Shown here one piece after another: positions 3,738 through 21,216 of a DNA stretch of 32,000 nt. The notes under the pieces were generated by a model. The model saw nothing but the letters and a program-made list of their open reading frames with translations. It made no database searches and was not told the origin of the DNA. A program made the translations under genes and the position numbers. Source of the DNA: an uncultured archaeon (lineage in GTDB: Archaea; Iainarchaeota; Iainarchaeia; Iainarchaeales; CSSED10-239); NCBI GenBank assembly GCA_964591795.1, contig CAZQEL010000001.1, positions 1 through 32,000 of the forward strand, in the 5' to 3' direction. Position 1 is the first letter of the stretch; each line of letters starts with the position of its first letter.

Positions 3738-3767
3738 TACTTACTTTTGTTTATTAAAAAAATAAAA

Positions 3768-4121: not shown

Positions 4122-4170
4122 CTAACATCACCTTAATAATATTTTTATATACTATATATATATAGTTAAA

Positions 4171-4180
4171 TATATTTAAA
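4171..4180 (-). promoter_or_regulatory. Archaeal TATA box (TTTAAATATA) for the envelope operon
   Basis: Matches the archaeal box A consensus TTTAWATA. It lies ~54 nt upstream of the ATG at 4121, which leaves room for a short leader carrying the GGTGATG SD. Confidence 0.4.
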
Positions 4181-4227
4181 AAACTATTGGATAATTAACA
4201 TTTATAGACAAAAAAAGAGGGGAAAAC

Positions 4228-5007
4228 ATGAAATTTTTATTAATTAATTCAACTAAAGACATTGCAGCTAATAATTTAACAGAAGAACTATTTAAATCAT
4301 ATAATTTTACTGAAATTAAACCAAATTTATATAAATTACAAATTGATGCTTTAAATGAAATATATTTAAAAAAAATTAATGACATACACATACATACAAA
4401 AAAAGAAAATATATGTAATGATGAAATTGATTTTGACCAAATTATATTTTTATCAAGACATTCAACTTTATCTAAAACAAAATCAAAATGTATGACTGTC
4501 CATGCAATTGGTAATTGGGGAATTGCAGAACTTGGAGGAAATGATTTTACAATTGTAAAAACAGATCCCATATTAATAAGGAGTTTACTTTTAAATTTAA
4601 AAGAAAATAAAAATCCAGAAATAAAACAATACGAAGTAAAACAAGAAGCAACCCATCATGGCCCTTATCTTGAAATACCAACTATTTTTTATGAAATTGG
4701 ATCTATTGATAATGATTGGAAAAATAAGGATGTTTCAAAATATATGATAAGAATTTTAATTGACACTATTAAAAATTATAATAAGAAAAAAATTATACTC
4801 GAACAAAACTGGATTGAAACAGTAGGAGTTGGAGGAAGTCATTATTGTACTAGATTTAATAAACTTACCTTTAATAGAAATAAAAAATATTGTTTTGGAC
4901 ATGTAGTTCCTAGTTATGCAATAAAAAATATTACTCCAGAAATATTAGAAGATGCTAAAAACAAAAGTAATTCTAAAAAAATAATATATGAAGAAGATAT
5001 TATATAA
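4228..5007 (+). CDS. dtdA: D-aminoacyl-tRNA deacylase, archaeal type (DTD2)
   Basis: 259-aa ORF. It is collinear with remembered Pyrococcus DTD2 motifs: SRHS, HAIGNWG..ELGG, EATHHGP, FYEIGS, VGVGGSHY and FGHVVPSYA. A GAGGGG SD lies upstream. Confidence 0.8.
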   Translation: MKFLLINSTKDIAANNLTEELFKSYNFTEIKPNLYKLQIDALNEIYLKKINDIHIHTKKENICNDEIDFDQIIFLSRHSTLSKTKSKCMTVHAIGNWGIAELGGNDFTIVKTDPILIRSLLLNLKENKNPEIKQYEVKQEATHHGPYLEIPTIFYEIGSIDNDWKNKDVSKYMIRILIDTIKNYNKKKIILEQNWIETVGVGGSHYCTRFNKLTFNRNKKYCFGHVVPSYAIKNITPEILEDAKNKSNSKKIIYEEDII

Positions 5008-5021
5008 CTACTTTATATAAT
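4999..5021. terminator. Shared hairpin between the convergent dtdA and DXR-like genes
   Basis: ATTATATAA-CTACT-TTATATAAT is a 9-bp inverted repeat containing both stop codons (TAA at 5005-5007 on the plus strand; TAG at 5008-5010 on the minus strand). Confidence 0.3.
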
Positions 5022-6129
5022 AATCTTCTAAATTACTTTTAATTTTTTGTTCAATTGCACAAACTGAACTTAAATCAGGATATTTATCAAATAAAGATTT
5101 ATCATCTATAATTTTTTTAAGCAAATCATAAATTTTAACCTTTTCTTTAAGTTTTCGATTATATATTAAATTAAGTATAGTTTCAATTGCAATATAATAT
5201 ACAATAGGATAGGAACCACCCTTTTCAATTGCATATAACCCAAGTTCTAAAAATTTTTCTTTACTTAAATCTATTTTTGAAAATGAAATTGAAAATTTTT
5301 TTTGTTTATTAAAAATATCTGATTTTAATTTCATACCAGAATTTAAGAAATAATAATTAAATATACTTTCAAGATTTAAATTTGCTGCAAAAATAACACT
5401 TGTACCATTTATAAAATTAACATCAATATTTGCAAATCTATCTGTTTGTTCATAAAATAAAAAACTATTAGGATGTATATTATAAATATAATTAATTAAA
5501 AATAAATCATTAACAAGCCTGATTTTGTTTAAAGAATAAAATTTTTTAAGATATGACACATAATTTGTATGTTCATTAATACTTATAGCTTTAGAAGTCA
5601 CTTTTTGAGAAAAAAGATTAATTGTATTTATTTTATTAACTGGATTTGATTTTAATAAAAAATCAAGTGAATAAATTGGGTATGAAAATAATTTCAACTT
5701 GATTCCTTTTGATTTTGCTTCATTTACAATTATTTTTCCAGAATATAATAAAGGAGAAGTATTTAATAAAGTAATATCTTTAAATTCATAAATTGCAGAT
5801 AATATTTTTTTAACACTTATAATTCCAGATAATGAAGAAACTACCTCGTCAATCTGATTAGATTTTATAAAATTAGAAAAATTTTCAGCACCACTAAAAA
5901 TATCTACTTTAACTTTTGATTCTATATAGTTAATATCTTTTTTTTCACTTAAAAATATTCTTTTTGGTTTAACCCGATTTACTTGAGTTATAAACAAATC
6001 TAAGTTATCTATTTTAGAATCATAGGATAACCCAAAAATTATAAATTTATTTGAATTATTTAAAAAAAAATCTAAAGCTTCATTACCAAGATCATTATTA
6101 GAACCCAAAATCACTATATTCTTTTTCAT
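5008..6129 (-). CDS. DXR (1-deoxy-D-xylulose-5-phosphate reductoisomerase)-like protein with degenerate cofactor and metal motifs; probably not a functional Dxr
   Basis: 373-aa ORF, collinear with E. coli Dxr as remembered. [20 protein letters not shown] aligns with [55 protein letters not shown] aligns with [59 protein letters not shown] aligns with CLKLAMEAFEQGQ..NAANEITVAAF. The motifs GSTGSIG, LANKES, PVDSEH, GSGGPF, NKGLE and HPQS are all replaced. Confidence 0.5.
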   Translation of the reverse strand: [373 protein letters not shown]

Positions 6130-6154
6130 AACATATATACAAAGAATATTAAAG

Positions 6155-6162
6155 TATTTAAA
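6155..6162 (-). promoter_or_regulatory. TATA box (TTTAAATA) upstream of the DXR-like gene; spacing suggests a leaderless or very short leader mRNA
   Basis: It lies 26-33 nt upstream of the ATG at 6129, and no SD is visible. Confidence 0.3.
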
Positions 6163-6176
6163 TGTATTTTTTTAAT

Positions 6177-6216
6177 AAAAAATAGAAAAAATAAGTCTTA
6201 TTTAAAAAAAGACTTA
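6177..6216 (-). terminator. Hairpin plus T-run downstream of the basic-protein gene
   Basis: An 8-bp stem (TAAGTCTT / AAGACTTA at 6192-6199 and 6209-6216) is followed on the transcribed strand by TTTTTTCTATTTTT. Confidence 0.4.
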
Positions 6217-6241
6217 CTTTACAATTAAGAATTTAACAAAA

Positions 6242-6454
6242 TTATCTTTTCTTTGCAGATGCTTTTTTCTTAATAACTTTTCTAGCAGGTGCTTTTTTCT
6301 TAATAACTTTTCTAGCAGGTGCTTTTTTCTTAACAACTACTTTTCTAGCAGGTGCTTTTCTCTTAACAACTTTTCTAGCAGGTGCTTTTCTCTTAACAAC
6401 TACTTTTCTAGCAGATGTTTTTTTCTTAACAACTACTTTCTTTTTTACAGCCAT
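6242..6454 (-). CDS. Highly basic repeat protein (KKAPARKVV-type repeats); putative histone-H1-tail-like nucleic-acid-binding protein
   Basis: 70 aa counted from the ATG at 6454 (MAVKKK...), which is preceded by GGAGGG (cctcc at 6461-6465). The ORF-track start at 6478 is a TTG. The protein has 26 K and 8 R out of 70 residues and no acidic residues. It contains five or six copies of K(K/R)KAPARKV(V/I)(V). Confidence 0.65.
   Translation of the reverse strand: MAVKKKVVVKKKTSARKVVVKRKAPARKVVKRKAPARKVVVKKKAPARKVIKKKAPARKVIKKKASAKKR
6261..6416 (-). repeat. In-frame tandem repeat, period 30/33 nt, five units inside the basic-protein CDS
   Basis: Units at 6261-6290 and 6291-6320 are identical (gcttttttcttaataacttttctagcaggt). 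The following units at 6321-6353, 6354-6383 and 6384-6416 differ by a 3-nt indel (tac) and a few substitutions. Confidence 0.9.
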
Positions 6455-6520
6455 GTTTTCCCTCCGATTTTTCTGCAAAAGCAGAATAATAAAATATAAT
6501 AAAATAAATATATGTAAACA

Positions 6521-6528
6521 TTTATAAA
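6521..6528 (-). promoter_or_regulatory. TATA box (TTTATAAA) upstream of the basic repeat protein gene
   Basis: It lies ~70 nt upstream of the ATG at 6454. AT-rich context makes this call weak. Confidence 0.25.
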
Positions 6529-6770
6529 TGCTACATATTTAATATTTTGAAGATAAATTTCTTAAAAAAATAATTGTCCAAAAAATAAATCAACCACTTA
6601 CCTCTAAACAATTATAAATTAAGGAGTTAGAACCAGCACACCAAAAAATGAGTTTAAATTAAAGTCAAAAATAATAAATTCAGGTTATATATTAAAAAAT
6701 AAATAAATAAATAAAAAAAGAGTTTTGTTTTTTAGTCCAAGAAATAATGAAACTAAAAAATAAACTTATT

Positions 6771-6806
6771 CGAAAAAAAATAAAGAAAATGGATTAATTA
6801 ATCCAT
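6771..6806 (-). terminator. Stop-codon-embedded palindrome plus T-run after fusA
   Basis: ATGGATTAATTAATCCAT (6789-6806) is a perfect 18-nt palindrome that includes the fusA TAA. It is followed on the transcript by TTTCTTTATTTTTTTT. Confidence 0.4.
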
Positions 6807-8996
6807 AAAATATTCAGCTGGTTTTGGATCTGCATCCATACCTTTTCTTTTTCTAATTTCACTGATAGTATCTTTAAGTAAACTTTTTGGTAAAGTTTCA
6901 TATCCAGAATACTCAGCAGTCCACACAGCTCTACCTTGTGTTTCTCCTCTCATTTCTTGAGAGAACCCTATCATTGACTTAACAGGAATCTTACAAATAA
7001 AGATAGAAGAATCTCCTTCTGTTTTAATATCTTCAATTTGTGCTCTTCTTGAAGATAAAACCTTTGAAACAGAACCCATAAAATCTTGAGGAACTGAAAC
7101 AGTTAAGTTTTGCTTAGGTTCTAAAAGAACATAATTACCAGCTAAAACACAAGCATATATTCCTCTTGTAATTGCAGGTAATACTTGAGCAGGACCTCTG
7201 TGTATAGCATCTTCGTGTAAAGTAGTATCTTCTAATGAAACAATTATACCAGATACTTTTTCTTTAGCAACAGGACCTTCATTTGTAGCATCAACAAAAC
7301 CTTCAATAATAAGTTCTCTTACTTCATTTAAGTTTTGTATTCCTTTTGTTCTGTTAATTAATATTGAATGATTATTAACAGCCCAAACATTCTTTGAATC
7401 ATCATTTAAAAGACCAACTTCTTGTAATTTTTTAATTACATCAAGATCTTTATTAGGTCTAATTTTACCATTAAACTTAAATTTTCTAAAGTTTTCAAGC
7501 ATTTCTTTTTCAATAGGAGCTGCACTTAATTTAAACTTATTATGTTTATTTGGTGTTTTTGCTTCAACTTTTGGTGACTCAGTAGTAATTGTTTCATAAT
7601 ATACAACAATTGGTGAAGATACAGTTATTGGAATATTATTATCTTTTTCAATCTTATATTGAGTAATTTCTAAGTGAAGTTCTCCCATACCAGATAAAAG
7701 ATGTTCACCAGTATCTTGATTTAATTCAGCTTTTATATTTGGATCTTCTTTTGAAATATTATGAATTAATTGTATTAGTCTTGGAAGATCTTTTGAATTT
7801 TTAGCTTCAATTGAAATAGTCATTACAGGTTCAACATCAGTCATGAAATCTTCAAATGGAACAATATCGTGACTTGCAATTGTTTGACCAGAGTAAACTT
7901 CTTTAAGACCAATAATACATGCAATATTACCAGCTTTTACTTCTTCTAAAATAACTCTTTCAGGACCTAAATAAATTCCAACATATTGTACTTTTGTTGT
8001 TCTATCAGTTCCTAAAACTTTAAGATCCATTCCTTTCTTTATAGAACCTGAATAAATTCTTCCAGAAGCAATATCACCAGCATGCTTATCTAATACAATA
8101 TCTGTAACCATCATTGAAACTTCTTCTGATTCAGTATTACATTCAAGCATTGCTTTTCCTTCAGGTGTTTGATGATCACCTTTCCAAATAACTGGAATTC
8201 TATATTTTTGAGAAACTCTTGGATTTGGTAAGTGTTTTGCAACCATTCCTAAAAACACTTCTGAAATAGGAATTCTATCTGAAAGTTCTTTTTGTTGTTC
8301 TTTTTCAGCATAATCAATTACATCTTTAAAAGTTACATTATATTTTTTCATTGCAGGAACTGAAAGTGCCCAATTATGAAAACCAGAACCAAAACAAACA
8401 GAACCATCAGCAATTGAAACTTGCCAATCTTTTTTTAATTCATCTGTTGCATTCTTTACAATTAAATTATTAATATCCATTACAACTTTTACAAATTTCT
8501 TTTGCATATCTTCTGGAGTTACATGCATTTCTGTTATCAATCTATCAACTTTATTAATAAAAAGAACAGGTTTTACTCTTTCTCTTAAAGCCTGTCTTAA
8601 AACTGTTTCTGTTTGTGGCATTACACCTTCAACAGCATCAACAACTAAAACAGCTCCATCAACAGCTCTCATAGCTCTAATAACATCACCAGTAAAATCA
8701 ACGTGACCTGGTGTATCAATAATATTTATTAAATATTTTTCTTTATCTATTTCACATGGAACAGAAACATTTGCAGAATTAATAGTAATTCCTCTTTCTT
8801 GCTCTAAAATATATGAATCCATGAAAACTTGTTTACCAGCTAAATCTTTTGACATTAAACCAGCTGTTGCAACTAAATTATCTGTTAAAGTAGATTTACC
8901 ATGATCAATGTGTGCAATAATTGCAATATTTCTAATATTAGTTGTGTTTGACATTAATTTTTCAGCAAGTTCAGCAACTTGTTCTTTTCTTCCCAT
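6798..8996 (-). CDS. fusA: Translation elongation factor 2 (aEF-2)
   Basis: 732-aa ORF with a G1 motif (AHIDHGKST), DTPGH, NKVDR and the diphthamide-site motif HEDAIHRGPAQ. An AGGTGA SD lies upstream. Confidence 0.97.
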   Translation of the reverse strand: MGRKEQVAELAEKLMSNTTNIRNIAIIAHIDHGKSTLTDNLVATAGLMSKDLAGKQVFMDSYILEQERGITINSANVSVPCEIDKEKYLINIIDTPGHVDFTGDVIRAMRAVDGAVLVVDAVEGVMPQTETVLRQALRERVKPVLFINKVDRLITEMHVTPEDMQKKFVKVVMDINNLIVKNATDELKKDWQVSIADGSVCFGSGFHNWALSVPAMKKYNVTFKDVIDYAEKEQQKELSDRIPISEVFLGMVAKHLPNPRVSQKYRIPVIWKGDHQTPEGKAMLECNTESEEVSMMVTDIVLDKHAGDIASGRIYSGSIKKGMDLKVLGTDRTTKVQYVGIYLGPERVILEEVKAGNIACIIGLKEVYSGQTIASHDIVPFEDFMTDVEPVMTISIEAKNSKDLPRLIQLIHNISKEDPNIKAELNQDTGEHLLSGMGELHLEITQYKIEKDNNIPITVSSPIVVYYETITTESPKVEAKTPNKHNKFKLSAAPIEKEMLENFRKFKFNGKIRPNKDLDVIKKLQEVGLLNDDSKNVWAVNNHSILINRTKGIQNLNEVRELIIEGFVDATNEGPVAKEKVSGIIVSLEDTTLHEDAIHRGPAQVLPAITRGIYACVLAGNYVLLEPKQNLTVSVPQDFMGSVSKVLSSRRAQIEDIKTEGDSSIFICKIPVKSMIGFSQEMRGETQGRAVWTAEYSGYETLPKSLLKDTISEIRKRKGMDADPKPAEYFMD

Positions 8997-9122
8997 TTTA
9001 TATTCACCTTTAGTTATTTATAAATTTAATAAAAATTATCCTTAATAGAAAAACTAAGAAATGTATTTTATTTTTAAGACAATACTTGTAAATAGTATAT
9101 CTAATATATAATATAGTAGAGA

Positions 9123-9132
9123 TTTATTTAAA
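9123..9132 (-). promoter_or_regulatory. TATA box (TTTAAATAAA) upstream of fusA
   Basis: It lies in the 178-nt gap after the methyltransferase stop, ~130 nt upstream of the fusA ATG. It is followed by ACTATAT, as at other promoters in the window. Confidence 0.3.
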
Positions 9133-9174
9133 TACCTTTTCTTATATGTAAAAAATCCTATATTTTGCTAAAAA

Positions 9175-9804
9175 TTATGATTTTTTAGTCATTAAGCAAA
9201 CATAACGTCTTTTGTAGTTATTAGTACCATATCTTAAGGGAATTAGCTTATTAATAATAAAATCCTCTTTAAATGTTTCAATAATTTCTTTCTTTGATAA
9301 AGGATACGAGTACATATTTATTAAAGAATTAAAATAAAATTTTTTATTATTAAAAGTTTTTTCACGCTTATCAAAACAAAAAAGTAAAAATTTACCTTCT
9401 CTATTTAATAATTTAAATAAAGTTTTAGAATATTCTTTTCTTTTTTCAGGTAAGATATTATGAAATAAACCAACATCATATAAAAAATTATATTTATCTT
9501 TTAATAACTCTTTTGAAAAGACATCTGACTGTTTAAAATCCAGATTTTTATTTTTATAAGATTCTTTTGCAAATTTAATAATCTCTTTAGATACATCAAT
9601 TCCAGTTACTTTAAAGCCTTTTTTTGAAAGATAATTAGCAAAATAACCATTTCCACAGCCTAAGTCTAATGTTTTTGAAGAGGTAATCCATTTAGAATCA
9701 ATTATTTCTTTAAACCACTCTGGTATTGTGGTTCTAACCCATGGAAGTTTTTTTAAATTTTTTTTAAAAGAATAAATATCATTCCAATTATTTTCTTTTT
9801 CCAT
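9175..9804 (-). CDS. Class I SAM-dependent methyltransferase
   Basis: 209-aa ORF. Motif I is LDLGCGNGYF, followed by an acidic post-I residue (VTGIDVS). Its ATG lies 2 nt after the stop of the 1276-aa gene, which implies translational coupling. Confidence 0.8.
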   Translation of the reverse strand: MEKENNWNDIYSFKKNLKKLPWVRTTIPEWFKEIIDSKWITSSKTLDLGCGNGYFANYLSKKGFKVTGIDVSKEIIKFAKESYKNKNLDFKQSDVFSKELLKDKYNFLYDVGLFHNILPEKRKEYSKTLFKLLNREGKFLLFCFDKREKTFNNKKFYFNSLINMYSYPLSKKEIIETFKEDFIINKLIPLRYGTNNYKRRYVCLMTKKS

Positions 9805-9806
9805 AT

Positions 9807-12800
9807 TTAATTTAATTTTATAATTTTCACAATACCCTTATTAGCATCAACCTCAATTAAATCTCCATCTTTTAAAACTTTTGTTGCTGTTTTAGTACCA
9901 ATAACACATGGTTTTTTAAGTTCTCTAGAGACAATAGCAGCATGACAAGTTATTCCGCCTTCATCTGTAACAAACGCAGAAGCTTTTTTCATAGCTGGAA
10001 GATAATTAGGCATAGTCATTGCTGCAACCATTATTTCTCCTTTCTTAAAATTACCAATTTGTTTTTGAGAAGTAATTATTCTTACAATACCTTGTACTTT
10101 ACCTTTATAAGCAATTTGTCCACCTATTTCTTTAATATCTAATTTTTGTTTTTCTAAAGTTAAATTTAATTTATCTAATGTATCACTTATATTATCAGTA
10201 TATAGTTTACCTTGATAATAAACAAATCCTTTTTTTCTTTCTTTAATTATATTTAGCATTAATTTTTTATTATTAACAGTTTTAGAAATAATATCATCTG
10301 GAAATACAAATTTGGTATTATTTTTTAAATAAGGAAATTTATTTTCAATGAATTCTTTAAATATAGGTTCTAAACTTTCAGCATATTTTTGAATTTTTTC
10401 TCTTAAAGCTAAAGCTTTTAATTTAATTTTTTTTGAAACATTAAAATTATCTTCAGGCAAAACAAATATTACAGCAACTTCAGCCCAATATGCTCCATAT
10501 AATTTAATTATTTTTTGATATTCAAAAATAGATTTTATTTGTCTACCTTTAAAATATGGCAATAATAAATTAAACTTTTTTAATAAATTAGAAAATATTA
10601 AATATACTAACTTTGGATTACTATTTATATTTGATTCTATAATTTTAAATACAGTAAAAAGCTCTTTATTATCATAATAAACATCCACAAGATCTTTTCC
10701 AGTATAAATAAAAGTTGTATTTTTTAAATCTTTTTTAATTAATTTAATTTTTTTAAAATAATATAAATAACTAAGATACCAAGCATATATTCTAGTTAGA
10801 GAATATTCTCTTGAATGTTCTTTATGTAATTGTGTTTTATATTTATCATCAAAAAATTCCTGTCCACTTAAAGTTATATTTAATTTATTTAAATTTTTAA
10901 AAATATCACCAGTATATAAATTTCCTTGATAATAGACGTACCCTTTTTCTCTTTTAGTAATTAATTTTAATAATTCAATTTTATTATTTACAAGCCCTGA
11001 CCAAATATCATCTGGCAATACAAAATTGCTTTTATTTTTAAGATAAGAATATTTTGATTCAATAAACAAAGATATTGCTTTTTGAATTACAAAATTATAT
11101 TCTTGAGATTCTGCCCGCTTTTTTAATGCAAATTGTTTTAATTTTTCAGAAACTGGTAAAGTTGGAAGAACAGTAACAAGTTGCATATACATCCAATTAT
11201 CAGAACACAAATTTTGAATTTCTTTTAATTCATCTAAATTTTTAATTTTTGAAGTATTTTTTTTAAATCTAATATATAATTGTTTAAATTTATTTAAATT
11301 GGCACTAATTTTTTGTATTACTAATTTAGGGTCTTTAATTGAAAGCTCAATTATTTTTTGAGTAATATTTTGTAATTCAGACAAATCATAATATATTTTT
11401 ACAAGATTTTTATTATCATAAACTGCACAAGTATGATTCATTTTTTCTCCAACAATTGAATAAAATCCATTAGTCATTGAATCTTGAGCAGCACTTAATC
11501 TAAAAAGAGTAAATTCATTAAGTTCTCTTGAAAATAATAACGAAAGATTTTTAATTTTTAATAATGTATTTACTTTATTTATTGTTGTTGTTTTTTTTAA
11601 TTTAGTTATTGATCTTGATTGTGTAATATCTATTTTATTTTTTTCTTTATTTAATATTCTAACAACACCATTATCTGCATCAACTTCTACTAGATCCCCA
11701 TCTTTTAAAATATCAGTAGCTATTTTAGTTCCAATCACACATGGTTTCTTAAGTTCTCTAGAAACAATAGCAGCATGACAAGTAATTCCACCCTCATCAG
11801 TCACAAATGCTGCTGCTTTATACATAGCAGGAAGATAATTAGGCATAGTCATTGCTGTAACTAAAATATCCCCTTTTTTAATTTTATTTAAATCTTTGAT
11901 ATTTAATACAATTTTTACTTTTCCTTTTACCTTTCCATTAAATGCTGATTGTCCTTTAAGTTTATCTTGTTTTTTGATTGTTTTCTCTTCAATTCTTATT
12001 CCTAAATTATCCAAAATTCCCTCAATATTTCCTGTGAAAATTTCACCCCTATAAAAAACAAAACCCTTATTTCTTTCTTTAATTTTTTGTAGCATATTCT
12101 TTTTATTTTTAACTTCTTCAGACCAAACTTCTTCTGGTAAGACAAACTTGGTTTTATCTTTAAGGAATGGATAAAATTTCACTAAAGTTTCTTTGAATAC
12201 ATCCTCTATTGTTTCATTATAATCTTGAATGTCTTTTCTTGCTTTAAGGGCTATATCTTTAATATTTTGTGGTAAAAAGTCCATTCTTGGAACAGCAAAA
12301 ACCATCCCATGAAGTAAATAATATTCTGTATATTTTTCATAAACTTTTTTTAATTCATTCTTTTTCAAAATATGCTTTTTTTCTTTAAAATAAGGAAGAA
12401 GATAATTAAAATCATTATATAATTTTTTTATTAATTTTTCAAAAAATGTTTTGTCTGTTACTTTTTTTGCTATACTTTTAAATAAACCATCCCATGAACT
12501 TTTTGTATAATAAACATTTACCAAATTTCCTCGATAAATTTTGCAAGCATCTTTTACTTTATATCCAAAAATCTTTTCACTTAGCTTCTCATAATTTTCA
12601 TATAAAGAATAAACTCTAAATAAAGAATATTCTCTTGAGTGTTGTTTTATGAAAATTTCTGATATGTTATCTTTTTTATAAATAAATTTGCTTTCTGTTA
12701 AAGTTGTAATTGGTCTACTCTGAGTTATATATATTTTGTTCTTTTCAATAGCCCATTCAATATCTACAGGAAAACCATAATGATTTTCAATTTTCTTAAT

Positions 12801-13637
12801 TAAATTAGAAAGAGATAAAATCTGAGATTTAGAAAGAACTTGTGAACCACCTAATTTTTTAGTTAGTTCCTTCCATTTAGTACCTTTTTTTAAACATCTA
12901 TACATTGCTTTAGATTGTTCACTTATATTTTGCTCCAAGATTTTAAGTGGTTTTTTAGAAACAATATAACTATCAGGTGTTATTGCTCCAGAAACAATTG
13001 CTTCTCCTAACCCATAACCAGCTTCAATAATTAATTGATTATAATCTTCAGTTACTGGATGTACAGAAAAGGCAATTCCAGATTTTTCTGAATTCACCAT
13101 TTTTTGAATAACTACAGCTACTGAAATATATTTATTTTGTAAATTTTTTTCAAATCTATAAAAAATAGCTCTTGAAGTAAATAAAGATCCCCAACATCTC
13201 TTTACATTAAATAATATATTTTTTTCAGTTGTATTAAGATAGGTATCCAACTGTCCAGCCCAAGCAACACTAGCAGAATCTTCTGAAGTGGCTGATGATC
13301 TTACTGCTACAAATTTTGTTTTTAATTTTTTAAAATAAGACAATATATCTTTTGAAAGCTTTTTTGAAATTTCTTTAGAAAGAATTAAATTTTGAATTTC
13401 TTTAGAAGCATTATCAATAGTTTGTACTTTTTTAATATTTACTTTATTTAAAATTAAATTAATTTTTACGTTTAAATTATTTTCTTTAATAAAAATATCA
13501 AAAGCAGAAGATAATATCACAAAACCATTTGGAACAGAAATATCTGAAGAATACATTTCTCCTAAAGAAGCTCCTTTACCACCTGCTTCTTTAACTGAGT
13601 CTTTATTTAAATCTTTAAAAAATTTAATTATAACCAT
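9807..13637 (-). CDS. PEP-utilising-enzyme family multidomain phosphotransferase (PpsA/PPDK N-terminal ATP-grasp plus two swivel phosphohistidine domains plus three helical modules); no PEP/pyruvate TIM-barrel domain
   Basis: 1276-aa ORF. Residues 1-313 resemble the PpsA N-terminal nucleotide-binding domain (GGKGASLGEM, VAVRSSATSEDS, ..YITQSRPIT). Two near-identical mobile His domains carry TDEGGITCHAAIVSRELKKPCVIGT (His621 and His1232). Three paralogous ~225-aa modules occupy residues ~325-555, ~695-925 and ~935-1165. Confidence 0.8.
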   Translation of the reverse strand: MVIIKFFKDLNKDSVKEAGGKGASLGEMYSSDISVPNGFVILSSAFDIFIKENNLNVKINLILNKVNIKKVQTIDNASKEIQNLILSKEISKKLSKDILSYFKKLKTKFVAVRSSATSEDSASVAWAGQLDTYLNTTEKNILFNVKRCWGSLFTSRAIFYRFEKNLQNKYISVAVVIQKMVNSEKSGIAFSVHPVTEDYNQLIIEAGYGLGEAIVSGAITPDSYIVSKKPLKILEQNISEQSKAMYRCLKKGTKWKELTKKLGGSQVLSKSQILSLSNLIKKIENHYGFPVDIEWAIEKNKIYITQSRPITTLTESKFIYKKDNISEIFIKQHSREYSLFRVYSLYENYEKLSEKIFGYKVKDACKIYRGNLVNVYYTKSSWDGLFKSIAKKVTDKTFFEKLIKKLYNDFNYLLPYFKEKKHILKKNELKKVYEKYTEYYLLHGMVFAVPRMDFLPQNIKDIALKARKDIQDYNETIEDVFKETLVKFYPFLKDKTKFVLPEEVWSEEVKNKKNMLQKIKERNKGFVFYRGEIFTGNIEGILDNLGIRIEEKTIKKQDKLKGQSAFNGKVKGKVKIVLNIKDLNKIKKGDILVTAMTMPNYLPAMYKAAAFVTDEGGITCHAAIVSRELKKPCVIGTKIATDILKDGDLVEVDADNGVVRILNKEKNKIDITQSRSITKLKKTTTINKVNTLLKIKNLSLLFSRELNEFTLFRLSAAQDSMTNGFYSIVGEKMNHTCAVYDNKNLVKIYYDLSELQNITQKIIELSIKDPKLVIQKISANLNKFKQLYIRFKKNTSKIKNLDELKEIQNLCSDNWMYMQLVTVLPTLPVSEKLKQFALKKRAESQEYNFVIQKAISLFIESKYSYLKNKSNFVLPDDIWSGLVNNKIELLKLITKREKGYVYYQGNLYTGDIFKNLNKLNITLSGQEFFDDKYKTQLHKEHSREYSLTRIYAWYLSYLYYFKKIKLIKKDLKNTTFIYTGKDLVDVYYDNKELFTVFKIIESNINSNPKLVYLIFSNLLKKFNLLLPYFKGRQIKSIFEYQKIIKLYGAYWAEVAVIFVLPEDNFNVSKKIKLKALALREKIQKYAESLEPIFKEFIENKFPYLKNNTKFVFPDDIISKTVNNKKLMLNIIKERKKGFVYYQGKLYTDNISDTLDKLNLTLEKQKLDIKEIGGQIAYKGKVQGIVRIITSQKQIGNFKKGEIMVAAMTMPNYLPAMKKASAFVTDEGGITCHAAIVSRELKKPCVIGTKTATKVLKDGDLIEVDANKGIVKIIKLN

Positions 13638-13868: not shown

Positions 13869-14630
13869 CTATCTTAAAATATAATTTTTAATTTTATTAA
13901 TTGAAAACTTTTCCTTTCTAACTTCTTTTACAGTCACATACTTTTTTTTTCGATTACTAGTAGTATGTGAAACATAATCTAGAAAGTTATTTGAAATATA
14001 ACTAACATAATCAAAAACTGGATTTAAATTACTTACTTTTCCATTATTAATTTTTATACTTAAATTTTCATTTTTATTAATTTCATTTAATTTATTAAAA
14101 ACACTAATGAAAAAATTATTTCCTTCAATTACTAATTGATTTTTGTCTTTAGCTATTAATAGTTCATAAAAAATTTCTGAAAATTTTTGAAAATATTTAG
14201 ATTGCATTGTAACTCTTCTACTTTCAATAAACTTAGTTATTGAATCTAAAACTTCAATAGCAAGTACTGGAAATTTAATTTTATAAAATTTATTTTTAAT
14301 TAAATTTATTTCTTTTTTAGATTTATTAGGATATCTTTTAATTAATAAATTATCTGAAATTTTAAAAGAACTAAATAAACTATAAACACCTCTAATTATA
14401 ACCTCTCTTGAATCCTTACCAACTAGTTTTTTATGATTAGATTTTCTAATAATAAATTCTTTATATTTAGGTGATTCAAAAGTACGATAAATATTTCTAA
14501 TTGATTTTGCATATCTTATATCATATTCTTTAATATTATATGATTTTGATATTTTAGATAGTTTTTTTTCTAAAACATATCCTTTACCATATCTAATTCT
14601 ATCTGGAATTAAAGTTTTTAGTCTTTTCAT
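13869..14630 (-). CDS. Hypothetical basic protein (orphan); first gene of the accessory cassette
   Basis: 253-aa uninterrupted ORF in a genome where AT-rich stop codons are frequent. It has an ATG start, a TTTATAAA box ~50 nt upstream, no recognisable motif and no Cys. Confidence 0.55.
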   Translation of the reverse strand: MKRLKTLIPDRIRYGKGYVLEKKLSKISKSYNIKEYDIRYAKSIRNIYRTFESPKYKEFIIRKSNHKKLVGKDSREVIIRGVYSLFSSFKISDNLLIKRYPNKSKKEINLIKNKFYKIKFPVLAIEVLDSITKFIESRRVTMQSKYFQKFSEIFYELLIAKDKNQLVIEGNNFFISVFNKLNEINKNENLSIKINNGKVSNLNPVFDYVSYISNNFLDYVSHTTSNRKKKYVTVKEVRKEKFSINKIKNYILR

Positions 14631-15409: not shown

Positions 15410-15835
15410 CTATCTAGTAGATTTCTCTTTTTTACCTGTTCTTAACATTTCAAGGGATTGTCCATTTACTTTTATAACCTTGTATTTAACACCCCAAAGA
15501 TCTCCAACAGGTCCACCCTTACGTCCACCAATACCTTCTACAGTAACTTGATCGTGGATTTCAATAAATTTAATAGCTTTATCCTTAGGAGCTAAAGCTG
15601 TAAGTTCTTTACCATTTTTAATAAGCTTTACTCTTACACATTTTCTAATACCTGAATTTGGCTGTCTTGCTGTAATTCCTTTCTTTTCAAGTACTATACC
15701 TTTTGCTTGAGGAGCTCCTCTTAAAAGACCTTTTTTAGCTTTTACTTTTATACTTCTTTTTTGTCTAGGATCTTTTTTTGCCCATTTAATTCTATCTTTA
15801 ATATTTTTTTTTGCTGCGAATTCACCATTTGCCAT
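15410..15835 (-). CDS. rps12: 30S ribosomal protein S12 (uS12)
   Basis: 141-aa ORF with [24 protein letters not shown] and [32 protein letters not shown] lies upstream. Confidence 0.96.
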
Positions 15836-15861
15836 ATAATTTCACCTTATTTTCTAAAATT

Positions 15862-16119
15862 TTATTTTTTATTTTTTATTTTTTGTCTATATTTTTTTGC
15901 AACAATAGATATTAACTCACCATTAAATTTTGCATCATTATATATCTTTTCTAATACTTTTATTGCAAGTTCTTTATTATTAATATTAATTCCAAAGGTT
16001 TTCAGAGTTGAAATTTCAGGTGTTTCTTTTCCAACTTTTAATTTAACTTCTTTAGAATGTTTTGAAATTTTAATTTTTCTATTTGTAGTTTTAAAAACTT
16101 CTGTTTTTTTTCTTGCCAT
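15862..16119 (-). CDS. Hypothetical small basic protein occupying the position where archaeal nusA is expected
   Basis: 85 aa counted from the ATG (MARKKTEVF...); the ORF-track TTG start is at 16128. It is packed tightly between rpl30e and rps12. No KH-domain GxxG motif is visible. Confidence 0.5.
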   Translation of the reverse strand: MARKKTEVFKTTNRKIKISKHSKEVKLKVGKETPEISTLKTFGININNKELAIKVLEKIYNDAKFNGELISIVAKKYRQKIKNKK

Positions 16120-16129
16120 GTTGTCCAAA

Positions 16130-16621
16130 TTATTTTTTTTTAATTTTTAAAATACCTTTTAAAGCAGCATCTTCTTTAATTGAAGTTTCTTCTTCTTCTT
16201 TTTTAATTTCTTTTAATTTTTTAGCTTTTGTTTTTTCACTTTTCTTTTCTTCTTTAACAGCTCTTTTTTCTGCTTTTAAAGTAGCTTTAGTAACTTTAGT
16301 TTTAATAACTTCTTTTAAATTAATAACATCAAAAATTGATGATTGACCTAAATCTTTAATTACAATTGAAGAAACATTGAAAGATTTACCACAAACAGAG
16401 CTTAATTCAAAACCATTTTCTGGATATTCAATAAATATTACTTTTAAAAGTTTAGCATAATGTTCAATTTGTTTTTTAGTTATACTTTTTATTGTTTTTG
16501 AAACAACAATTAATTTTGGTTCACCAACAAGACATTCTCGTAATGTTTCTTTAGTTCCATAAATTACTTTTCCTGTATCAACAGAGCTTCTAAGTTGTGT
16601 ATTAAATCTATTCCAATCCAT
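16130..16621 (-). CDS. rpl30e: 50S ribosomal protein L30e with a ~60-aa Lys/Glu-rich C-terminal extension
   Basis: The first ~100 aa match the L30e pattern (RSSVDTGKVIYGTKETLR..., EPKLIVVSK, HYAKLLKVIFIEY, ELSSVCGKSFNVSSIVIKDLGQS). The remainder is KEVIKTKVTKATLKAEKRAVKEEKKSEKTKAKKLKEIKKEEEE... Confidence 0.88.
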   Translation of the reverse strand: MDWNRFNTQLRSSVDTGKVIYGTKETLRECLVGEPKLIVVSKTIKSITKKQIEHYAKLLKVIFIEYPENGFELSSVCGKSFNVSSIVIKDLGQSSIFDVINLKEVIKTKVTKATLKAEKRAVKEEKKSEKTKAKKLKEIKKEEEETSIKEDAALKGILKIKKK

Positions 16622-16716: not shown

Positions 16717-17880
16717 TTAATTTTCGTCCATTTTCTCTTGTTTTTTAATCATTTTTTTTAAATTTTTAGGATCAAGTGTAAGTCTTACTTGACCAGTTCC
16801 TGCAAGTATTGGTTGACCAACAATTAAATTTTCTATAATTCCTTTAAAGTTTTCTCTTTCTCCAGAAAAAGATGCTGCTAAAAGATGTTTTACAGTTTCT
16901 TCAAATGCAGCTCTTGCAAATGGACTTGCTTTTTCACCAGTAATTCCAGTTCTTACAACACCTTTAACTCTTCCGCCAAGGCACATAAGATCTGCTAATA
17001 CTGCAATGTGTCTTTTATTAATATCAATACCATTACTTTCAAAAGTAAATGAAAGTTCTCTTACAATTGATTCTTTTGCAGCTTCAATTCCAAAAACTTT
17101 ATTTATTTCTAAAATATCATTAGTATGAGTTCTATTAGTATCAATTTCAGGTATTTTTAAAACTTCAGATAAATTAGAACCTTTTGTTGTAATATATTTT
17201 TCACCATTTTCTTCAGCAACAACTACAAGTTCAATACGTTTTACACCAAATAATGGAATTTTATTCCATTTAATTATTGCTTTTCTAATATTAAAAAGAG
17301 GTGTATCTTTATCAAATGTGAAATTAACACCATTTTTATTAGGTGTAAATCTTTTAGAAATATAAACATCAGCAATTTTATCATAAATTAATGTCATAGT
17401 TTCTTCTTTATCTAAATTAAGTTCGTTTAATTTATCATGATCTAAAACAAAAGAAACTATTTTTTTTTCAAAATCTTCTTGAAAATCACCAATTGTTGCA
17501 ACTTTAATATCAATTAAGCTTTTTGCAAATTTATTTAATTTTTTATCATTTGCAAAAATATCTTTTTTAAGATAAATTTTCATAGAAGGAAATTTAGATG
17601 AAAGTCTACCATCTACAATCTCAATAACTCTTTGAATTCCTTGACCAACAGAAACTTCTAAAGAACCAGCATAGTGCTTTGTTCTTAAAGTTAACTGAGT
17701 TCCAGGTTCACCAATTGATTGTGCAGCAATAAGTCCAATAGCGTCTCCAGGTGTAACTAATGATTCATTATATCTTCTTGACACAATTTCCATTAACTTT
17801 TTACCCTTAGCATCACTATAACTTTTCTTTTTTGAATAGCTTTTTATTCTTTCAACAACGTTTTTTGGTAAATCTCTCAT
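16717..17880 (-). CDS. rpoA2: DNA-directed RNA polymerase subunit A''
   Basis: 387-aa ORF with GDAIGLIAAQSIGEPGTQLTLRTKHYAG and a conserved C-terminal block (RAAFEETVKHLLAASFSGERE...GQPILAGTG). Confidence 0.96.
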   Translation of the reverse strand: MRDLPKNVVERIKSYSKKKSYSDAKGKKLMEIVSRRYNESLVTPGDAIGLIAAQSIGEPGTQLTLRTKHYAGSLEVSVGQGIQRVIEIVDGRLSSKFPSMKIYLKKDIFANDKKLNKFAKSLIDIKVATIGDFQEDFEKKIVSFVLDHDKLNELNLDKEETMTLIYDKIADVYISKRFTPNKNGVNFTFDKDTPLFNIRKAIIKWNKIPLFGVKRIELVVVAEENGEKYITTKGSNLSEVLKIPEIDTNRTHTNDILEINKVFGIEAAKESIVRELSFTFESNGIDINKRHIAVLADLMCLGGRVKGVVRTGITGEKASPFARAAFEETVKHLLAASFSGERENFKGIIENLIVGQPILAGTGQVRLTLDPKNLKKMIKKQEKMDEN

Positions 17881-17896
17881 AGTCTTTCACATTTTT

Positions 17897-18517
17897 TTAA
17901 ATTACTTTTTTACAAACCTTATTTAATAAATCATTATTTATTAAATTATTGAAATAATCCACTTCTGCTTTAGTTATTCTATATTTATTATAAAACTCAA
18001 TCTCTTCTTCAGTAGCTCCTTCTATATTATTTTTTGAAGGTCTATTTTTATCTTCCTTACAATCATACATCTCTAAAAAGGGACTATCATAACTAATTAT
18101 ATAATTTTCTATAATTGATATTGAACTATTATCATCTTCCCACATACTTTTATATTCTTCATAAGTTAAATTTAAATATCTTGTATTTTTTCCACCAATT
18201 AAACCACCAACATCTATAATATATCCTTGATTTAATTTAAAAGAAGGTAATCTGTACTGTGCATAATTTACTTGCTGATTTAAATTATTATCTTTAGTAT
18301 CTATTGATCCAGGAATAATTACTGGTGAAGAATATGAAGTTATATTATTATCTTTAGTACCTACAGGAATATTTAAAGAATAATCTTTATCTGTTTTAAA
18401 AATAAATGGTCCTGGTTCAGTGACATATGCTTTATTTTGAGATTCTCTTAACAAAAATAAAACAACTACAATTATTACCACTAAAATTATTATTGTTATT
18501 AAACTATTTTTTTTCAT
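17897..18517 (-). CDS. Hypothetical membrane-anchored protein inserted between rpoA1 and rpoA2
   Basis: 206-aa ORF with an N-terminal TM anchor (LITIIILVVIIVVVLFLL). It contains an internal short repeat (GTKDNNITSY / DTKDNNLNQQ). Its stop lies 16 nt before the rpoA2 ATG. Confidence 0.55.
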   Translation of the reverse strand: MKKNSLITIIILVVIIVVVLFLLRESQNKAYVTEPGPFIFKTDKDYSLNIPVGTKDNNITSYSSPVIIPGSIDTKDNNLNQQVNYAQYRLPSFKLNQGYIIDVGGLIGGKNTRYLNLTYEEYKSMWEDDNSSISIIENYIISYDSPFLEMYDCKEDKNRPSKNNIEGATEEEIEFYNKYRITKAEVDYFNNLINNDLLNKVCKKVI

Positions 18518-18630: not shown

Positions 18631-21216
18631 CTATTCGTGGAAGAAATTAATATTTTTCCCAAGATATGCTTTATCAGGAGAAAGTCCATCATCACCATAA
18701 ACAAACTGAATAACTTGGCCATCAGCACTTTTAACAGATAAATCATCTTGAACAACAAGATCTTTAAGTGCGTTAGAAAGTCTTCTATAAAGATATCCAG
18801 ATACTTTTGTGGAAACACCAGTATCAATTTCACCTTGTCTTCCACCAATTGAGTGCACAAAATATTCTTTTGGTTGCAAACCATCATAAAAATTACTTTT
18901 AACAAATCCATAATCCATTAATGAATTAGAACCTGCAATACTAGAACTTAAAAGTCTATTTTTAAAACCATTCTTAGCTCTTCCAGCTCTTACAGTTACC
19001 TGTCCCCAAAGACCAATAATATTAACAACATTTAATAATTTTCCTCTAGATCCACCAACACTTGAAAGCATAGTTGTATTATTATTTGAAACTTTACGTT
19101 TATCATACATTTCATTAAATTTTAAAACTAATATCTCATCAGAAACACTATCTTTAACTTTACCAGCTGCAGACATCATTTCAAATTCAAAAGTTTCATT
19201 AAGAGTTTTACCTGAAACTAAAGGTAAAGTTTTATTTTCAAACTTTTTAACTATTGAGTTTGTATTTGATACAAGTTCTTTTATTTTTTTATCAATATCT
19301 TTTTTTAAAAATTCAGGTGTCTTATATTCATCAAGACCAATTGTTAATCCTTTCTTTGAAAGAGTGTAAAAAACTAACTTTGATAATTTATAATAAAAAT
19401 CAGATAAAAAATCCTTAGGATAATGACGAGTAAGAACATCAATTAAGTTCTTAGCTGAAGTTGCTCTTTCATCAAAAACACCAGATAATAGTTTTCCTTT
19501 TTCAATTTTTAAATAACAATCATATTTTTCAATATCTTTTTTAGTAACTTTTCCTTTTATTTTTTTAATAATTGTATACATTTTATTTTCGTATTCAATA
19601 TTTAAATCATTTGGAAGTATTTGACTAAAAATTAATTTACCAGAATATTGACCTCTTCCTCTATCAGCTGATGGAAGTTCAGTAATTCCGATTGAATAAA
19701 GCATTTCCATTGTTTCTTTTTTACTAAATTCAGTATTTTTTAATGTTAATAAAAATGCTCCAGAAATAAGATCTTCACCAGGAATTATTATTGGTTTACC
19801 ATGTCTCATACTAGAAATATGATTAGTTACCATTAAAAGATTTTTAATTTCAGCAATTGATGATTCACTTTGTGGTGCGTGTATTTGCATTTCATCACCA
19901 TCAAAATCCGCATTATAGGGAGGACATGAAATTGGATTTAATCTAAAAGTTTTACCTGGTAAAACTTTTACTTTATGTCCCATAATTGATGCTCTATGCA
20001 AAGTCGGTTGTCTGTTGAATATTACAAGATCTCCATCAACCATTTTTCTTTTTGCAATAAGCCCATCTTCAAGTGCATCAATAATTTCTTGCTTATTTGT
20101 TTCTGTAATTATTTTCTTTCTATTTTTTTTGGTTATTAAATATTTTATTTTATCTTGCAAAATATATTCTTTGATCTTTGACATATTCCAAAGAGTTATT
20201 CTTTCTGAAACTGTTAATGTATCTGCAACTTCTTGAGGAACACCAAGTTCATCAATTGCAATATCTGTAGATGGAGATATGGTTGATCTTGCAGCAGAAT
20301 TTACTCTTTTTCCAATTAAATTATATCTAAATCTTCCTTTTTTACCTTTAAGTCTTTGAGCAAGAGTATTTAATGCTCTTCCTGATCTGTGCTTTGCAGG
20401 TGGAACCCCAGCTGTATTATTATCAAAATATGTAGTTACATTATATTGTAAAAGATCCCATAGGTCTTCAATAATAATTTGTGGAGCACCAGCATTCATA
20501 TTCTCATGAAGTCTGTTATTAATTCTAATAATATTTAAAAGCATATGTGTTAAATCATTTTCAGCAGTAACAACGTTTTCTAAAGACAAAGAAGGTCTCA
20601 TTGATACTGGTGGAACTGGTAAAACATTTAAAATAAACCATTGAGGTCTAAGTTTATCTGAATATCCAAACAAAAATAAATCTGTATCATCAATTTTTAA
20701 AATCCAATCTAAAATATCAGAAGGATAAAGTCTTTCTCCATCAACAAAGAAATTAGTTGGTTTATCAAGTAAAACTTTTACAACATCTGATTTACAATGA
20801 GGACATTTTTTAAGAGTTTTAGATGCATTAATAATAAATTTACTAATCTTATTAGGATTATCAGAATACCTCATAAGTTCAGTTCTATCTTCATCTTCTA
20901 AAAGAAGTTTACCACATTCTTTACAAGTACATTGTAAAATATGGTTAATTTTTTCAGTAAACTTAGGATGCATAACTGGTCTTGTTAATTCAATATGACC
21001 AAAATGACCAGGACAATCTCTCATACCATGACCACAAGTTTTACATCTAAGACCAGGAGAAATAACACCTAAATGCAAATCCATTACTCCTCTTTCTATA
21101 GGATATCCATCTTTATCATAAGTATCTGCTCTAGATAGTTCTACAGCTGACATTTTTCTAATAAGTTCTGGACTTAATACATTAAACTCAATTGATTTTA
21201 TTTTCTTAATACTCAT
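18631..21216 (-). CDS. rpoA1: DNA-directed RNA polymerase subunit A'
   Basis: 861-aa ORF with Zn motifs (CKTCGHGMRDCPGHFGHIEL; CKECG...CPHC) and the catalytic motif NADFDGDEMQIH. Confidence 0.98.
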   Translation of the reverse strand: MSIKKIKSIEFNVLSPELIRKMSAVELSRADTYDKDGYPIERGVMDLHLGVISPGLRCKTCGHGMRDCPGHFGHIELTRPVMHPKFTEKINHILQCTCKECGKLLLEDEDRTELMRYSDNPNKISKFIINASKTLKKCPHCKSDVVKVLLDKPTNFFVDGERLYPSDILDWILKIDDTDLFLFGYSDKLRPQWFILNVLPVPPVSMRPSLSLENVVTAENDLTHMLLNIIRINNRLHENMNAGAPQIIIEDLWDLLQYNVTTYFDNNTAGVPPAKHRSGRALNTLAQRLKGKKGRFRYNLIGKRVNSAARSTISPSTDIAIDELGVPQEVADTLTVSERITLWNMSKIKEYILQDKIKYLITKKNRKKIITETNKQEIIDALEDGLIAKRKMVDGDLVIFNRQPTLHRASIMGHKVKVLPGKTFRLNPISCPPYNADFDGDEMQIHAPQSESSIAEIKNLLMVTNHISSMRHGKPIIIPGEDLISGAFLLTLKNTEFSKKETMEMLYSIGITELPSADRGRGQYSGKLIFSQILPNDLNIEYENKMYTIIKKIKGKVTKKDIEKYDCYLKIEKGKLLSGVFDERATSAKNLIDVLTRHYPKDFLSDFYYKLSKLVFYTLSKKGLTIGLDEYKTPEFLKKDIDKKIKELVSNTNSIVKKFENKTLPLVSGKTLNETFEFEMMSAAGKVKDSVSDEILVLKFNEMYDKRKVSNNNTTMLSSVGGSRGKLLNVVNIIGLWGQVTVRAGRAKNGFKNRLLSSSIAGSNSLMDYGFVKSNFYDGLQPKEYFVHSIGGRQGEIDTGVSTKVSGYLYRRLSNALKDLVVQDDLSVKSADGQVIQFVYGDDGLSPDKAYLGKNINFFHE

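Follow-up and report, generated by a model that had tools for sequence, protein, structure and literature searches.

Introduction

The catalytic toolkit of the phosphoenolpyruvate (PEP) synthase/rifampin phosphotransferase (RPH) superfamily is known. Its dikinase chemistry, in which ATP and an acceptor give AMP, inorganic phosphate (Pi) and a phosphorylated acceptor, has been described for PEP synthase, pyruvate phosphate dikinase (PPDK), RPH, phenylphosphate synthase and HpeHI (PMC4844700, PMC12167813). The forms found in the literature are RPH with its single cassette, the two-component dikinases and glucan water dikinase. In the two-component dikinases HpeHI, PpsAB and CreHI an ATP-grasp subunit charges a separate subunit that joins a substrate domain to a swivel domain, and HpeH alone can transfer phosphate among substrates (PMC12167813). 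Here, we analyse a gene in which one ATP-grasp domain is fused to several units that resemble the latter kind. It occupies positions 9807..13637 of the minus strand in a 32,000-nucleotide stretch of DNA from an uncultured archaeon (assembly GCA_964591795.1, contig CAZQEL010000001.1, positions 1 to 32,000), which we call the window, and it encodes a multi-cassette dikinase-like protein of 1276 amino acids. From its N-terminus the protein reads N-A-H1-relic-B-C-H2: an ATP-grasp domain (N), a first module (A), a first phosphohistidine swivel domain (H1), a short relic, two further modules of the same family, M (B and C), and a second swivel domain (H2). By cassette we mean one or more spacer modules followed by a His domain.

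Among the described enzymes RPH (PDB 5FBS/5HV1; NF041857) has the same order of parts, i.e. an ATP-grasp domain, a central acceptor domain and a C-terminal swivel His domain with no TIM barrel, and the dikinase chemistry is presumably common to both proteins. Yet, RPH has one cassette where the window protein has two His domains and three modules, and the RPH central domain spans about 430 residues in three subdomains whereas M has about 230. The N and His domains of the window protein are 36-37% identical to those of RPH-Lm, and the residue two positions before the catalytic His is Thr in the window protein but Met in RPH. With 386 bits, all on the N domain, the match to the RPH model NF041857 stays below the cut-off of 999. 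The two-component dikinases HpeHI, phenylphosphate synthase PpsAB and CreHI show that the ATP-grasp unit and the unit of substrate domain plus swivel His are separable, as they are in split relatives of the window protein. These systems encode the units as separate genes whereas the window gene is fused, and each of their ATP-grasp subunits works with one H-type subunit, whose RPH-like substrate domain has about 470 residues, whereas the window family has several different cassettes per ATP-grasp unit, fused or in one operon. The hosts also differ: DPANN archaea and Patescibacteria for the window family, aromatic-degrading bacteria for the HpeHI-type dikinases. By sequence, the N and His domains are nearest to PEP synthase and PPDK, with which they have GGxT(S/C)H with its Thr in common; PEP synthase has a TIM barrel in place of which the window protein has M modules and a second His domain. 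Finally, the prodigiosin-condensing enzymes PigC/RedH/HapC and glucan water dikinase also combine an ATP-grasp domain and a swivel His without a TIM barrel, but with only one His domain and with acceptor domains of other kinds, and the PigC NCBIfam model matches the window N domain only (360 bits, cut-off 1300).

Results

Anatomy of the protein

The open reading frame (ORF) is intact, from an ATG start to a TAA stop, and all its parts are given here by their coordinates on the minus strand. The N domain (12699..13637, residues 1-313) ends in ITQSRPITTL (residues 304-313) and matches PPDK_N (PF01326) over residues 16-317 (E 5.9e-95). Its best match among PDB sequences is the archaeal PEP synthase 8a8e (E 1.8e-90), the motifs GGKGASLGEM, VRSSAT-ED and QSRPITTL are invariant across 20 homologues, and AlphaFold2 (AF2) models it with a predicted local distance difference test score (pLDDT) of mostly 85-94. 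PEP-utilizers (PF00391) matches the protein in two stretches (combined E 5.5e-52), corresponding to the two swivel domains. H1 (11649..11963, residues 559-663) carries the TDEGGITCHAAIVSREL motif and aligns to the swivel domain of 8a8e; H2 lies at 9816..10130 (residues 1170-1274), with its best PEP-utilizers stretch at residues 1197-1268. The motif TDEGGITCH is present twice, and its GGITCH starts at residues 616 and 1227, giving the catalytic residues His621 (codon 11775-11777, within a motif at 11775-11792) and His1232 (codon 9942-9944, motif at 9942-9959). H1 and H2 are 69% identical over 104 residues (E 7e-55, segment-wise BLASTP, as are the comparisons that follow). Catalytic motifs and anatomy are thus intact in N, H1 and H2.

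The three modules, putatively acceptor-binding, lie at 11973..12668 (A, residues 324-555), 10863..11549 (B, residues 697-925) and 10140..10823 (C, residues 939-1166). They are paralogous: A (324-550) and B (697-924) are 30% identical (E 1.6e-28), A and C 39% (E 7e-36), B and C 43% (E 1e-34). Between H1 and module B the motif ITQSRSITKL occupies residues 671-680. These results bear out what an earlier note had read from the letters of the window, namely one PPDK_N-like N-terminal domain, two swivel domains with His621 and His1232, paralogous modules A, B and C, and the two ITQSR motifs at exactly these positions; the self-alignment that it proposed recovers both the A/B/C and the H1/H2 repeats.

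The note had also found no TIM barrel in or beside the gene, and we agree. PEP-utilizers_C (PF02896), the Pfam model of this barrel, is absent from the 1276-residue ORF even at E<=1 and from all 16 other window ORFs scanned, flanking genes included. This bears on whether the gene encodes a real PEP synthase whose barrel acts in trans, or is a decayed ppsA. The N and His domains are indeed nearer to archaeal PEP synthase than to RPH, both in the match to 8a8e and in the score with NF005057, and in one source database a nearly identical protein goes under the name 'phosphoenolpyruvate synthase/pyruvate phosphate dikinase'. But both PEP-synthase models of the TIGR01418/NF005057 pair stay below their cut-offs (563.5 bits against 598 for NF005057, 532.8 against 739.75 for the other), and their matches cover only model positions 1 to about 412 and the His domains. 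Besides the missing barrel, the ORF is intact, its architecture is kept in hundreds of lineages, and the contig of a relative with the same layout (P0007) also carries a canonical ppsA of 796 residues with its own TIM barrel. We therefore regard a PEP synthase as very unlikely.

Misassembly can occur wherever there are internal repeats, and the earlier note had named it as something that would undo the duplication. The repeats of this gene are only 71-74% identical at the DNA level, and in an independent assembly from ENA (ERZ27316756, contig k141_407230) all 1276 residues of the protein are identical and the same methyltransferase follows. Because of these two observations we consider misassembly excluded and the duplication real. 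A further cluster member of equal length (1276 residues) exists in databases, and P0007 shows the same layout at 43% identity. That an assembly artefact made the duplication thus deserves practically no credence.

One ATP-grasp domain, many cassettes

The window protein belongs to a large family. We surveyed the 120 closest homologues from a search with the full-length protein and mapped their domains with hidden Markov models (HMMs) made from the window N, M and H segments. Full-length relatives are giants of 900-2200 residues; only a few have a named source, which is Woesearchaeota, Nanoarchaeota, ainarchaeum or Patescibacteria. In all 120, the ATP-grasp domain is single and N-terminal, and cassettes follow it. 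Three His domains are the commonest number (76 proteins), with one in 8, two in 17, four in 16, five in 2 and none in one partial record, so that 111 of 120 homologues have at least two His domains and 94 at least three. If the family is defined by one PPDK_N domain, at least two cassettes of spacer and PEP-utilizers, and no PEP-utilizers_C, the window protein falls within it.

An exhaustive search of 1.84 billion representatives with the M profile returned 767 proteins at E<=1e-3. We classified the layouts of 139 new M-bearing representatives found among the best 150 of these 767. More than half (76/139) are free-standing M-H proteins of about 340 residues, 13/139 are M-M-H, one joins an N domain to five His domains and another joins it to six. 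Two extreme members, P0121 (1832 residues) and P0233 (2648 residues), illustrate the range according to our HMMs: one reads N-M-H-M-H-H-M-H-M-H and the other has an N domain with six His domains.

The same parts are also found as operons of separate genes. In a Nanoarchaeota genome (GCA_042571125.1, positions 2276-7017 of our locus L053) a PPDK_N gene encoding 316 residues is directly followed by three PEP-utilizers genes encoding 471, 452 and 338 residues, and in GCA_964609765.1 (positions 3295-12035 of locus L052) one PPDK_N gene stands among five PEP-utilizers genes. Intermediate cases exist: the genes of P0007 and P0009 are each directly followed, with a 4-nucleotide overlap, by an extra free cassette gene. 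Since fused proteins and fully split operons both exist, the design of one ATP-grasp unit with several cassettes is conserved whether its parts are fused or split. The survey of homologues that the earlier note had called for thus turned up both forms.

Two candidate extra domains in relatives were discarded. Epimerase_2 (PF02350) falls inside the His domains, below threshold and with no significant stretch of its own. AcnX-swivel (PF01989) was not reproduced in our own scan at E<=0.01; Foldseek finds that the swivel domain resembles an aconitase-X swivel protein, which would explain the faint PF01989 matches.

We found no description of multi-swivel or multi-cassette dikinases, nor of this family in DPANN archaea or the Candidate Phyla Radiation (CPR), in the literature held by PMC and bioRxiv, from which some journals are missing. 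Three features hence appear undescribed: an architecture with several stations, the compact module M, and the gradation from fused to split forms. The earlier note did not recognise the arrangement as described, and within this literature that stands; the arrangement is not singular, however, but belongs to a large DPANN and Patescibacteria family.

Module M and the central domain of RPH

Searched singly against Pfam at E<=10, modules A, B and C gave noise only. We built AF2 models on family alignments, separately for residues 1-690 (mean pLDDT 83.4) and 681-1276 (mean pLDDT 86.9). M is mostly modelled at pLDDT above 85, and module A at about 85-96 as a mixed strand-plus-helix fold. The predicted fold of M runs from a strand, a long helix and a hairpin into a helical bundle and then through a hairpin, a helix and a strand into the His domain. 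In Foldseek searches of the PDB, RPH was the top match for residues 1-690 (5hv1, E 9e-37) and again for residues 681-1276, where there is no ATP-grasp domain (5fbu, E 4e-9, 672 columns).

Family members also carry spacers of other classes, which we call X1 (about 376 residues), X2 (about 240), X3 (about 249), X4 (about 341) and X5 (about 265). HHalign relates M to X2 (99.9%) and to X1 (95%), and X1 to X3 (97.8%) and to X4 (98%); on these profile comparisons the spacer classes are one superfamily. A combined M and X2 profile aligns to X1 in two pieces, its N-terminal half on X1 43-155 (96%) and its C-terminal half on X1 304-395 (93%), with a range of 93-97% for the two ends. Because of this split, X1 can be read as essentially M plus an insertion of about 150 residues. 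X1 in turn matches the profile of the RPH central domain (89% probability, E 2e-6, 259 columns), in an alignment that places a conserved Arg on RPH Arg666, 'LT.EEI' on 'FLYFEEL' and 'I..R' on 'INARK'. The homology of M to the RPH central domain is thus indirect, a transitive link through X1.

The order and spacing of motifs point in the same direction. The distance from the motif that ends N (SRPITTL) to RPH Gln337 or to R335 of module A is 27 in RPH and 28 in A; from R666 or R467 to the 'EE' pair (E709 or E502) it is 43 and 35; from there to the next Arg (R728 or R522), 19 and 20; and from that Arg to the catalytic His (H825 or H621), 97 and 99. Only the stretch from Q337 or R335 to R666 or R467 differs strongly, with 329 in RPH and 132 in A. 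Since order and spacing agree apart from this gap, M looks like an RPH central domain from which some 200 middle residues, roughly arm 2 and part of the apex, are missing. RPH contacts the phosphate of rifampin-phosphate through Gln337 and Arg666, with Glu667 hydrogen-bonded to the catalytic His825 in a network that includes Lys670, and distant RPH clades keep only the Arg-Glu and Lys residues of block 9 (PMC4844700). Across M, three Arg and one Gly alone are invariant or nearly so, and A, B and C keep all four. Module A has R335, R467, E503, R522 and G525 as its conserved residues, B keeps R704, R841 and R896, and C keeps R943, the R1079-E1080 pair and R1134. This pattern fits a conserved phosphoryl site within a variable pocket.

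A proposed dikinase with several stations

The reading that we favour, as somewhat the more probable, is a multi-station dikinase of the PEP-synthase/RPH superfamily that converts ATP and an acceptor to AMP, Pi and a phospho-acceptor. ATP would be bound by the single N-terminal ATP-grasp domain. A swivel domain would dock there, His621 or His1232 would attack the beta-phosphate and become pyrophosphorylated, the gamma-phosphate would leave as Pi and AMP would be released. The phospho-His domain would then swing back to its upstream module or modules, i.e. A for H1 and B with C for H2, where the conserved arginines (R335, R467 and R522 in A and their equivalents in B and C) may hold the phosphoryl group during its transfer to the acceptor. 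The two cassettes would be parallel acceptor stations of different specificities fed by one ATP site. By analogy with the superfamily the acceptors are probably hydroxyl groups of small molecules. Hence we infer, as the earlier note had suggested, a small-molecule phosphotransferase with two stations; this inference includes its chemistry, the idea that the His domains work side by side and not in series, and the assignment of M as acceptor site. The existence of split operons and of free M-H proteins leads us to argue that each cassette may be autonomous and draw its charge, in cis or in trans, from an ATP-grasp partner common to several cassettes.

A chain that bears several phospho-His carriers could alternatively work as a serial phosphorelay or transfer phosphate to proteins, like Enzyme I, HPr and EIIA of the phosphotransferase system (PTS), with M as a docking or regulatory domain. 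The authors of the RPH structure noted a weak structural similarity of its central subdomains to HPr and EIIA (PMC4844700), and the N-terminal domain of Enzyme I is among our Foldseek matches, although the common swivel domain accounts for these. Both H1 and H2 also keep, in GGITCH, the Thr two positions before the catalytic His, a residue whose phosphorylation regulates PEP synthase and PPDK and whose place is taken by Met in RPH and the phenol kinases (PMC12167813). But the number and order of cassettes vary freely, unlike in a fixed relay, and in split operons each cassette gene has its own spacer and His whereas the ATP-grasp gene is single, which suits parallel stations better. We thus consider a relay unlikely.

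Several points weigh against a multi-station dikinase. The earlier note had assigned the protein an RPH-type architecture: the domain order and the Foldseek matches, with and without the ATP-grasp domain, agree, but a direct comparison of M with the RPH central domain is not significant (HHalign 0.3-10%, or 4-10% with a collinear alignment). Profiles of M-M-H and of M only, run against PDB sequences, gave His-domain matches or nothing credible, and none in the RPH central domain. PF27448, the RPH central region, occurs in none of 120 window-family proteins and in 120/120 homologues of the RPH central domain, as read from precomputed annotations since the local Pfam copy misses PF27448 even in RPH. 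For the B-C-H2 model the E-value of RPH is barely better than that of pyruvate kinase, which has only a swivel-like domain in common, so the Foldseek score comes mostly from the His domain. The geometry between domains is uncertain (predicted template-modelling scores of 0.51 and 0.56), and that both His domains reach the single ATP site is an assumption of the parallel scheme, which also leaves unexplained why B and C together precede one His domain. The Glu after the invariant Arg is found only in C; A reads R-K-D and B reads R-A-E at this place. The gene neighbourhoods of family members vary and give no pathway clue. Finally, the function is predicted from sequence and models for every member of the family.

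One might speculate on roles. For HpeHI its authors suggest that phosphorylation traps the substrate (PMC12167813), and the window protein could likewise trap scavenged metabolites; it could also inactivate host-derived compounds in the manner of RPH. A broader proposal, which we put forward tentatively and with less than even confidence, is that one ATP-grasp 'charging' domain serves shuffled cassettes, each with its own His and specificity. The family would then comprise combinatorial dikinases of 2-6 stations, fused or as operons, that pay with ATP, turned to AMP, for the phosphorylation of several different scavenged metabolites or of toxins from the host.

A fusion seam and the origin of the gene

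The relic between H1 and module B (11598..11645 on the minus strand, residues 665-680, EKNKIDITQSRSITKL) corresponds to the last 16 or so residues of an ATP-grasp domain. It is 81% identical over 16 residues to the end of N (residues 298-313, E 1e-4) and falls in a region (residues 666-694) that the models predict as a disordered linker with pLDDT below 50. Two relatives occupy the same slot as the window gene, between the genes of ribosomal protein S7 and elongation factor EF-2: P0003 (900 residues), which reads N-B-C-H, and P0002 (1110 residues), in which a truncated A-like remnant of 206 residues stands between N and B-C-H. Residues 297-899 of P0003 are collinear with window residues 665-1274 at 63% identity. 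This alignment opens on the ATP-grasp tail (IEKNKIYITQSRPITTL in P0003, NKEKNKIDITQSRSITKL in the window) and continues straight into module B. Because the tail of a complete ATP-grasp domain is thus collinear with the relic and runs into B, we read the relic as the remnant of a second ATP-grasp domain. This is direct evidence for the seam that the earlier note had proposed.

The two sides of the seam have different closest relatives. Module A and H1 are closest to P0004 (69% identity, to its first module, and 73%), whereas B, C and H2 are closest to the first module, second module and His domain of P0003 (63%, 60% and 82%). A unit of the N-A-H type would thus have joined a resident N-B-C-H gene, and one of the two ATP-grasp domains would have been lost save for 16 residues. 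The window N domain is 69% identical to that of P0003 and 61% to that of P0004, so that either parent may have supplied the surviving domain.

P0007 has the N-M-H-M-M-H layout of the window protein but no relic. We rejected it as an orthologue of the same layout: its third module is the best match for each of A, B and C, so that on this comparison the two layouts arose independently. Cassette shuffling appears to be frequent in the family.

Such a recent, lineage-specific fusion raises the question of whether a single cassette does the work, most plausibly the resident B-C-H2, with A-H1 redundant, regulatory or decaying. The syntenic P0003 and P0002 have indeed one His domain each, and the A-like remnant of P0002 sits, truncated, at the very position of A. 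On the other hand, A-H1 keep all conserved residues (R335, R467, E503, R522) and the full TDEGGITCHAAIVSREL motif, A and H1 are modelled with high confidence, and several His domains are normal in this family, where 94 of the 120 relatives have at least three. A single-function enzyme therefore seems to us improbable, and we retain the multi-station dikinase.

Genomic setting

The window is archaeal, with about 24% GC, and encodes rpoH, rpoB, rpoA', rpoA'', L30e, S12, S7 and aEF-2. In a genome scan with the whole protein the closest named genomes are those of Candidatus ainarchaeum (DPANN archaea), at 65-72% identity. The dikinase gene is placed between the S7 and EF-2 genes of this ribosomal-protein/RNA-polymerase cluster. 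Two nucleotides past its stop starts a gene for an S-adenosylmethionine-dependent methyltransferase of 209 residues (9175..9804, minus strand; matches to Methyltransf_25/11/31 and TPMT), with which it is probably co-transcribed. The pairing recurs in the independent contig but is absent from the syntenic P0002 and P0003 loci, and the methyltransferase is not a conserved partner of the dikinase. It also matches TehB and the PADLOC model mad2 (E 3.5e-17); the dikinase itself has no match in the defence-system library.

Between the S7 gene and the dikinase lies an ORF of 253 residues (13869-14630, minus strand) with no match to Pfam or other families, and at the same position relatives have small ORFs of 93 and 162 residues, lengths that are unrelated. 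In the genome of P0003 the S7/EF-2 gap also holds an S8 peptidase of 1404 residues. The gap seems to attract insertions that differ from lineage to lineage. We rejected the use of neighbours to deduce the substrate: toxin-antitoxin genes, a transposase, a reverse transcriptase, a peptidase and a methyltransferase come and go from locus to locus. At two loci (L003, 1821-8376, and L051, 593-4558) the dikinase or cassette genes have a low-molecular-weight phosphatase (LMWPc) and a HAD hydrolase beside them, which could be product phosphatases; the organisms behind these contigs may be related, so that the two cases do not count as independent.

Some other genes of the window deserve mention. The ORF at 5008-6129 (minus strand, 373 residues) matches the N-terminal domain of DXP reductoisomerase (DXR; E 1.7e-14) and more weakly its C-terminal domain, and has a counterpart of 384 residues in the syntenic P0002 locus (L002). 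Archaea normally take the mevalonate route, and a DXR-like gene is unexpected in an archaeon. An ORF of 206 residues without Pfam or PADLOC match (17897-18517, minus strand) lies between rpoA' (18631-21216) and rpoA'' (16717-17880), an interval without a gene in the syntenic loci L002 and L005. The low-complexity ORF of 129 residues at 15761-16150 (plus strand), antisense to S12 and small-ORF genes, is almost certainly a spurious frame of AT-rich DNA. Finally, 1327-3737 and 38-1303 (both minus strand) hold adjacent half-size MMPL/SecDF-like genes (408 and 395 residues, with a 4-nucleotide overlap), followed by a surface-type protein with CARDB/DUF11 repeats.

Implications

Source databases name the proteins of this family 'phosphoenolpyruvate synthase/pyruvate phosphate dikinase' or 'rifampicin phosphotransferase'. 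Such names can cause false calls of gluconeogenesis or antibiotic resistance in metabolic reconstructions of DPANN and CPR organisms. In CPR genomes, rifampin phosphotransferase (rph) genes have been reported by one survey (PMC8651080), and these could include members of the window family.

Should several swivel phospho-His domains serve each ATP site, the swivelling-domain mechanism would be extended from one shuttle to several. The combinatorial charging of cassettes, if true, would be a modular phosphorylation logic not known in any characterised enzyme. Module M, found in 767 of 1.84 billion representative clusters, is compact and rare, which makes it tractable for structure determination and substrate screening. 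Genome-reduced symbionts devote 3-7 kb to each gene of this family. From this cost, and from the site of the window gene between S7 and EF-2, it follows that the function of the family is probably important to the episymbiotic lifestyle.

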